Positions 1,675-2,078 of a stretch of 33,205 nucleotides of DNA are shown here, piece by piece. Both the position numbers and the translations under genes were made by a program. Below the pieces are notes generated by a model. That model searched no databases. It was not told the origin of the DNA and was given only the letters and a program-made list of their open reading frames with translations. Every line of letters begins with the position of its first letter. Within the stretch, counting starts at the first letter, position 1. Source of the stretch: a virus (taxonomy: Duplodnaviria; Heunggongvirae; Uroviricota; Caudoviricetes); the IMG/VR virus record IMGVR_UViG_2617270988_000009; one strand, 5' to 3'.

Positions 1675-1772
1675 TAGCTACCTCGATACTTTCGCTATCG
1701 TTGGTGGTTAGACGCCCTGCATGTGTTGCGAGCACTGCGGGGCGTTGCTTAATTTGAGTGACAAAACTCAAA

Positions 1773-1853
1773 CTGTGCGCACAGATCAAAATCATGTGTG
1801 CGCACATGTCAATACTTAACATCTCATTTTTTTTGCTGTATTGTGTGCGCCCA
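1773..1853. promoter_or_regulatory. divergent promoter region with operator-like palindromes: TGTGCGCACA at 1774..1783 and 1798..1807, degenerate copy TGTGCGCCCA at 1844..1853
   Basis: Two perfect 10-bp palindromes 24 bp apart centre-to-centre plus a third one-mismatch copy, between the minus-strand operon start and the plus-strand gene at 1881. Confidence 0.5.
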
Positions 1854-1880
1854 TAAAGTCCATTTAAGTGAGGTGCATCA

Positions 1881-2078
1881 ATGTCTAGCGGTAACACAAA
1901 CAACAAATCAGCAAAGAAAAATATTCGATTCCCGCATGAGCTTATAGATGGGATTGATGCCAGCGTTGAACAAGAAAAATTAACTAATCCTAGTGCTAAT
2001 TTTTCCGCATGGGTCTTAGATGCCTGTGGACGCAAATTAAAATATGAACAGCGCCGGAAGGCCAAAGAATCAGAATAA
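1881..2078 (+). CDS. small ribbon-helix-helix-like DNA-binding protein (DUF3950 / YlcI-YnfO-like), 65 aa
   Basis: GAGGTG ribosome-binding site upstream of ATG; motif NIRFP...I..I...NFSAWV..AC.R.L shared with the paralog at 25668..25853; sits next to the palindromic sites. Confidence 0.6.
   Translation: MSSGNTNNKSAKKNIRFPHELIDGIDASVEQEKLTNPSANFSAWVLDACGRKLKYEQRRKAKESE

Follow-up and report, generated by a model that had tools for sequence, protein, structure and literature searches.

What controls the leftward operon near the start of the IMG/VR virus record IMGVR_UViG_2617270988_000009, and is the control exerted by the small gene on the opposite strand beside it? The record, a stretch of 33,205 nucleotides analysed here at its full length (hereafter, the window), carries three palindromic sites between an operon of small open reading frames (ORFs) and a divergent gene for a 65-amino-acid (aa) protein. 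An initial annotation, made from the sequence alone, had suggested that this protein, with its N-terminus resembling a ribbon-helix-helix (RHH) domain, and the palindromes form an autoregulatory switch on a cargo operon. Comparison with related loci supports the switch; the operon (icd-like gene, small ORFs, DUF4222 and helicase) is, judged from its genes, the early/replication operon of a phage satellite and not cargo. We consider it likely that the 65-aa protein is an RHH repressor of the leftward promoter P_L, with negative autoregulation at its own promoter P_R, and that it represents a functional analogue of Mnt and Arc in the immI region of phage P22.

Palindromic sites and divergent promoters

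The exact palindrome TGTGCGCACA occurs twice in the whole window, at 1774-1783 and 1797-1806, with a centre-to-centre distance of 23 bp. By chance, 0.07 copies would be expected, and two or more copies were seen in none of 100 dinucleotide-preserving shuffles. The two perfect 10-bp copies had been recognised initially, but the second was placed at 1798-1807 and the spacing given as 24 bp. The third, degenerate palindrome at 1844-1853 is the sole one-mismatch copy in the window (TGTGCGCCCA). In a nearly identical element of Escherichia coli ESDR8 (locus L001), the motif with up to one mismatch is present at the same three places only. The coordinates bear out the position of the palindromes between the divergent small-ORF operon and the 65-aa gene. 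The following elements make up the region:

1773-1784: putative operator O1, CTGTGCGCACAG, a perfect 12-bp palindrome
1783-1788, minus strand: -10 of P_L, TGATCT, after an 18-bp spacer
1796-1807: putative operator O2, GTGTGCGCACAT
1807-1812, minus strand: -35 of P_L, TTGACA, perfect consensus
1816-1844, plus strand: P_R of the RHH gene, from a promoter scan, with -35 TTAACA (1816-1821), 17-bp spacer and -10 TATTGT (1839-1844)
1843-1854: putative operator O3, GTGTGCGCCCAT, core with one mismatch
1881-2078, plus strand: gene for the 65-aa protein of the YlcI/YnfO family (DUF3950), the proposed RHH repressor, with Shine-Dalgarno GAGG at 1870-1873

The -35 hexamers of P_L and P_R stand back to back with 3 bp between them. 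O1 overlaps the -10 and the expected start site of P_L, O2 occupies the P_L spacer and touches its -35, and O3 starts within the -10 of P_R and covers its +1. This geometry is as expected for a repressor that closes the leftward promoter and limits its own synthesis via a weaker site.

The -10 of P_L deserves special attention, as it is weakened in the window copy. C1787 (plus strand) puts a G at position 2 of the hexamer (TGATCT), whereas L001 has T and reads TAATCT, likewise two further loci (L008 and L033). C1787 may be a promoter-down change, and the switch in this particular copy could be seen as a decaying relic of a functional ancestral module, with P_L now inactive. The stretch between the RHH gene and the alpA gene to its right also looks reduced in the window in comparison with relatives that carry an antA/antB gene there. 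We regard such decay as very unlikely: the three operators and both -35 hexamers are intact, as are the RHH ORF and its ribosome-binding site, L001, whose gene set is complete, matches this arm of the island at 97.7% identity, and a single promoter base is no proof of inactivity.

Conservation of the layout and covariation with the protein

A scan of one genome per species yielded 45 loci, and 36 non-redundant loci from many genera were used for the layout counts. The palindromes, whose absence from homologous elements the initial annotation had named as counter-evidence, are kept: the three-site layout was found again in these 36 loci. The O1-O2 spacing is 23 bp in 33 of the 36, a TAnnnT hexamer occupies the P_L -10 position in 31 and lies immediately upstream of O3 in 30, and the GTCAA (-35) right after O2 is invariant in an alignment of 22 loci.

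Operators have the form (G/C)TG-N6-CA(C/G/T), in which the outer GTG...CAC is kept and the six-base core varies by element (e.g., TGCGCA, CATATA, TTTAAA, TGAACC, CGGCCA and TCCGCA). Agreement of O2 with O1 of the same locus at 10 or more of the 12 positions was seen in 97% of loci, compared with 5.8% for an O2 from another operator type. The best predictors of operator class in the protein are residues 12 and 14 (z = 8.9 and 7.2, respectively), alternate positions on the predicted strand beside the invariant R16, which are K12 and N14 in the window protein. A partial Mantel test with the rest of the protein controlled gave r = 0.52 between residues 12/14 and the operator core (0 of 2000 permutations); once residues 12 and 14 were controlled, the rest of the protein added nothing (r = -0.007). 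The pairings of residues 9-14, i.e. those just before IRFP, with operators are:

KSxKKN with GTGTGCGCACAT
RSTTKG with GTGCAyATACAC
KSxYKG with GTGTTTAAACAC
KSAKKH with GTGTGnACCCAC
KSKRKD with TTGTCCGCACAT

This covariation is, on the evidence of the aligned loci, the signature of a repressor co-evolving with its own operators.

The 65-aa protein

The protein matched Pfam DUF3950 (PF13132) with 28.3 bits against a cutoff of 25 and NCBIfam NF041551 (YlcI_YnfO_N) with 59 bits against a cutoff of 30, and the identical protein of L001 is named YlcI/YnfO by RefSeq. Few proteins belong to this family, which in a set of 1.84 billion representatives forms 122 clusters at 50% identity; homologues with 50-80% identity are spread across Enterobacterales and occur also in Gilliamella and Orbus. 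The gene is under purifying selection, with pN of 0.07 against pS of 0.81 in the comparison of the window with locus L007.

An AlphaFold2 model, built with 42 homologues (pLDDT 73.5), has an extended segment at residues 9-18 followed by helices at 19-35 and 41-63. The structure prediction advised by the initial annotation thus returned a strand and two helices, in the beta-alpha-alpha order of solved RHH domains. Searches by similarity were less conclusive. Foldseek with the predicted model found nothing significant and the close-family profile (A1) had no match among solved structures in the PDB; a wider profile (A5) aligned in the expected register with CdbA, an RHH protein, at E = 0.11. Three of 74 relatives matched Pfam CopG_antitoxin, and hhalign aligned KSAKKNIRFPHELIDGIDA with KMPQFNLRWPREVLDLVRK of Arc (E = 0.005, but with a probability of 6.9%). 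The RHH-like N-terminus proposed at the outset is therefore retained in so far as the modelled strand, the two helices and the register of NIRFP with NLRWP of Arc are concerned; the sequence matches to curated or solved RHH families were borderline. Taking the model and these alignments together, we regard an RHH fold as well supported, although not proven.

The island and its operon

Window positions 1-4700 are the roxA-proximal arm of an integrated island, which L001 matches with 97.7% identity over 95% of this length. The genes of this arm are:

1472-1675, minus strand: icd-like gene, first gene of the P_L operon (NCBIfam phage_ICD_like, 69.9 bits against a cutoff of 25)
1-1479, minus strand: remaining P_L operon in the window, with four small overlapping ORFs, DUF4222 (281-580) and the start of a RepA-like helicase
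2696-2884, minus strand: alpA (Pfam Phage_AlpA, E = 5.4e-17)
3249-4499, minus strand: tyrosine integrase gene (int), at the roxA-proximal island end

The helicase runs leftward from 284 and off the window edge; its annotation is supported by L001. The icd-like gene is found at the same position in related loci. L001 continues with genes for SSB, PerC, major capsid protein, prohead protease, portal, head closure, connector, HNH, TerS and TerL, and contains no tail genes, which corresponds to the set published for EcCIEDL933, a capsid-forming phage-inducible chromosomal island (cf-PICI). Of this set, the window itself holds int, alpA, the icd-like gene, DUF4222 and the helicase start only. Judged via the full gene set of L001, the element would be a cf-PICI of E. 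coli. The DNA of the window had no match in the phage collection; the element is a satellite and not a phage.

Between the end of int and alpA (3204-3228), we also noted TGTTCGCATA and a palindrome, TATGCGCATA, both two-mismatch relatives of the operator; these could be a regulator site in the alpA promoter region.

Exchange of cassettes between islands

Most loci share their neighbours, with an icd-like gene on the left and alpA and int on the right. To the right of the RHH gene, the window contains the following features:

2088-2114, plus strand: terminator-like hairpin directly 3' of the RHH gene, the conserved right border of the exchangeable cassette
2136-2321, plus strand: orf61, a 61-aa ORF co-oriented with the RHH gene, with an AGGAG ribosome-binding site and no family match
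2398-2417, plus strand: strong intrinsic terminator, which ends the rightward transcript of the RHH gene and orf61

The EcCIEDL933-like island of E. coli O55:H7 RM12579 (L049) has an identical AlpA (WP_000953272.1) and the same flanks, but a different, 57-aa RHH-like gene, whose product matched Arc (PF03869, E = 0.038) and YlcI_YnfO_N weakly. The swapped segment lies between the icd leader and the hairpin behind the gene and includes most of the icd-like gene. The 57-aa gene has its own palindrome, ATGGTAATTACCAT, which occurs twice and again flanks a TTGACA promoter (3230-3480 of that locus). In sequence terms, this is what an exchangeable immunity-like cassette would look like. EcCICFT073 of E. 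coli CFT073 (L052, 9474-9853), the prototype of Gram-negative PICIs, is likewise integrated at roxA; its YlcI/YnfO gene is on the opposite strand, accompanied by GGTGTGGCCCAC twice, 23 bp apart, the second copy followed by GTCAA (-35). The hairpin at 2088-2114 recurs after the differing RHH genes of these two islands. An E. coli PICI at yicC carries the sites GGTGTATTTCACC and GGTGAAATACAC, and the module is present as well in an island of the Klebsiella pneumoniae type strain ATCC 13883. We take this strain to be DSM 30104, in which the studied island KpCIDSM30104 resides. In locus L008 the module persists beside host genes, with no detectable int or alpA. Where relatives have antA/antB genes, these are located towards alpA and not within the P_L operon.

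These islands bear on the question of which protein occupies the sites. The palindromes might be bound by another factor, such as AlpA, a repressor or Cro of the helper phage or a host regulator, with the adjacent small gene being incidental; AlpA in particular binds DNA and activates PICI genes, and its targets are incompletely mapped. Since an identical AlpA stands beside different palindromes, the sites follow the RHH gene and not AlpA, which we rejected as the binder: one AlpA protein accompanies two unrelated palindrome sets. A host-factor site was likewise rejected, as the core differs widely among elements of one host species (the window, L047, L049 and L052). Moreover, the core covaries specifically with RHH residues 12 and 14, beyond overall relatedness. 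We consider binding by any such factor extremely unlikely.

A homologue of the window protein (64 aa, 43% identity) is encoded close to cos in phage lambda (J02459, about 48109-48303, minus strand; 200-394 of locus L050). It is unannotated in J02459 and in several other lambdoid records, and no three-site GTG-N6-CAC layout was found upstream of it. Public annotation of the islands, for its part, stretches 'Icd-like' or hypothetical coding sequences over the regulatory region and the antisense RHH gene, or flags a pseudogene (L047 4797-5168, L048 6997-7971, L049 3323-3916). As a result of such over-extended or pseudogene calls, the RHH gene and the operators are masked or absent from annotation.

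Proposed regulation

From the sites, promoter positions, conservation and covariation, all read from sequence comparison, we infer the following scheme of binding, repression, autoregulation and induction. RHH dimers, probably cooperating between sites, would bind the three 12-bp dyad operators (core TGTGCGCACA in this island). O2, in the spacer and touching the -35, and O1, over the -10 and the start, would block the strong leftward P_L, which is expected to drive the icd-like gene, the small ORFs, DUF4222 and the replication helicase and then the rest of the island. Binding to the weaker O3 on the -10/+1 of P_R would result in negative autoregulation. Operator specificity would be set by residues 12 and 14 of the beta-strand, and recognition of the conserved outer GTG/CAC probably falls to the invariant R16. 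Induction may proceed by two routes: AlpA-driven read-through transcription could converge on the RHH gene and overrun it, or a factor of the helper phage could inactivate the repressor.

A different role for the same contacts has to be weighed. The RHH protein could bind the sites and yet be a local safety lock on a toxic icd-like product, in the manner of an antitoxin or addiction module and together with an antisense RNA, with induction of the island wholly by AlpA read-through. The RHH gene, the operators and the icd-like gene are exchanged as a single cassette, the module of L008 has outlived any detectable int and alpA, and AlpA alone has been published to induce EcCICFT073. The conserved antisense-RNA-like element that targets the icd leader, and the stop-free corridor in the icd frame that could carry upstream translation across a locked promoter (both described below), would also fit. 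However, the icd-like gene heads a tightly overlapping operon that leads into DUF4222 and the helicase, and repression of P_L therefore silences the replication genes too. Typical type II antitoxins are, furthermore, co-transcribed with their toxins, which is not so here. A purely local lock strikes us as unlikely in comparison with repression of the whole operon. The arrangement of the genes led us to reject a classic toxin-antitoxin pair: behind the RHH gene come the terminator-like hairpin and orf61, and the icd-like gene is divergent.

Antisense RNA candidate and stop-free corridor

Two further features overlap the leader of the icd-like gene or its reading frame:

1660-1755, plus strand: candidate antisense RNA of about 80 nt against the icd-like 5' untranslated region and ribosome-binding site, with extended -10 TGgTATGAT (1660-1668), hairpin (1711-1746) and U-rich tail (1747-1755)
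1472-2638, minus strand: stop-free corridor of 388 codons in the icd-like frame, antisense through orf61, the RHH gene, both promoters and the three operators

The hairpin lies between the icd start and O1. On the plus strand, 94% of cells are paired and 9 of 14 pairs are compensatory, a value reached by none of 500 shuffles. Its consensus energy is -19.8 kcal/mol on this strand versus -8.5 kcal/mol in the mRNA orientation, and many of its G-U pairs become A-C mismatches on the opposite strand. A TAnnnT ahead of the hairpin, represented in the window by the extended -10, is kept across loci despite changes in the icd codons that it overlaps. The element is probably an antisense RNA directed at the leader of icd and its ribosome-binding site, as far as the aligned sequences tell. 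A C4/IsrK-type immunity RNA near icd was rejected, as neither the window (searched up to E = 1) nor any of 11 related loci matched a family of Rfam, C4 included. A query starting with the icd leader had partial matches, often of the first ~74 nt only, in 1374 of 5426 E. coli genomes, and many of the listed matches had no annotated feature.

The corridor is a property of one frame. The other two minus-strand frames over 1472-2638 contain 30 and 24 stops, respectively, and in the intergenic stretch summed over 31 loci there were 27 stops in the icd phase versus 167 and 148 in the other phases. A corridor of at least 600 nt in the icd frame was found in 24 of 36 loci (e.g., L004, L005, L009, L013, L015, L016, L026, L031, L034, L035, L037 and L041-L046). 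Its openness over the RHH coding sequence is intrinsic, the lambda homologue showing the same, but in the flanks it is not. One idea is that the corridor serves as a translated read-through path from P_alpA, the alpA promoter.

Gene callers often choose the long corridor ORF and so hide the RHH gene. The opposite possibility, namely that the 388-aa minus-strand ORF is the real gene and the RHH ORF its shadow, was rejected: the corridor-encoded peptides are unrelated between cassette types and the translation looks non-coding. The plus-strand protein, moreover, has a family of its own, including the lambda homologues, which have no such ORF outside the gene.

Comparison with known systems

The immI region of phage P22 comprises the RHH repressors Mnt and Arc, the divergent promoters P_ant and P_mnt and the sar antisense RNA. 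The module of the window resembles it in several respects. A small RHH gene is divergent from the operon that it is proposed to repress, dyad operators lie over back-to-back core promoters, autoregulation is proposed, and the first repressed gene probably has its ribosome-binding site covered by a short antisense RNA (a candidate in our case). The strand register, in which NIRFP aligns with NLRWP, is that of Arc. The module differs from that of P22 in that the 65-aa protein shows no significant homology in sequence to either Arc or Mnt, three 12-bp sites stand apart from one another where P22 has a single operator for each repressor, regulation begins with an icd-like gene and not with that of the antirepressor Ant, and the carrier is a phage satellite, not a phage.

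The immI operon of phage P1 comprises the c4 antisense RNA, icd and ant; c4 is on the same strand, processed from the same transcript, and the system is without an RHH repressor. Both operons are headed by an icd-type gene, translation is gated in P1, and would be gated in the window by the candidate, through a small RNA that pairs with the leader and ribosome-binding site, and relatives of the window island carry antA/antB nearby. In contrast to c4, the candidate RNA would be a true cis-antisense transcript, with no Rfam match, C4 included.

The master repressors Stl and Rpr of PICIs in Gram-positive bacteria (in Staphylococcus aureus, SaPIs) share their place with the putative repressor described here: in both cases the gene sits at a divergent promoter, with the integration module on one side and the replication/packaging operon on the other. 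Stl proteins are unrelated to the 65-aa RHH protein and much larger. In the published SaPI layout stl is co-oriented with int, whereas the RHH gene of the window opposes both int and alpA. Derepression of the Stl type is brought about by a helper-phage protein, whereas the published induction of Gram-negative PICIs runs via AlpA.

The YlcI/YnfO proteins of lambda and of the lambdoid prophages DLP12 and Qin belong to the same family (41-43% identity) and have the ..NIRFP.. motif of the strand and the FSAWV motif of the helix in common with the window protein. Their gene, in those lambdoid phages that were examined, lies in the late region near cos without an icd-like partner, which sets it apart from that of the island.

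Implications for satellite control

According to the published account, Gram-negative PICIs are transcribed unidirectionally and their cycle is activated by AlpA, which the helper turns on; the difference from Gram-positive islands has been called a mystery. The papers on cf-PICIs follow the same AlpA model and mention no repressor, and no repressor was named for Gram-negative PICIs in the searchable PICI papers. Literature searches on DUF3950/YlcI/YnfO, on ribbon-helix-helix with PICI and on EcCICFT073 returned no functional study in the searchable full texts; the sole mention of YlcI/YnfO in satellites that we found is the gene-list entry 'prophage-associated protein'. The RHH gene may be the so far unrecognised repressor of Gram-negative PICIs. 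It stands, on the opposite strand and with its conserved three-operator layout, exactly where a master repressor would be expected.

A broader generalisation is possible, although we hold it with more doubt than confidence: DUF3950/YlcI-type proteins, together with the Arc-like RHH proteins swapped for them, could be the master repressors that Gram-negative PICIs and cf-PICIs have seemed to lack, forming exchangeable immunity types by a two-residue code. The lock would then have three layers, namely the RHH protein on P_L, the cis-antisense RNA on the icd ribosome-binding site and a translated corridor that lets AlpA read-through bypass both, and helpers would induce by defeating it. One possible helper route would be heterodimer poisoning by the YlcI homologues of lambdoid helper phages. 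Already the narrower reading, of a repressor in this module, gives DUF3950 a testable function, predicts a simple recognition code (residues 12/14 versus operator core) and accounts for the mosaic immunity cassettes between otherwise near-identical islands. It also offers a concrete handle on satellite silence and on the wake-up by helpers, which is relevant since PICIs are being engineered as delivery vehicles. Should the repressor prove dispensable, a clean new family of RHH proteins and operators would still be left.

Further features of the window

The product of orf61 shares the motif RFA..ALE.FLK with ORFs at the same position in L049 and in CFT073 (WP_000130015.1 in the latter), and there is a possible frameshift near the 3' end of orf61. 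Positions 32964-33130, near the opposite end of the window, carry on the minus strand a neighbouring pair of tRNA-Arg genes with the anticodons tct and tcg.
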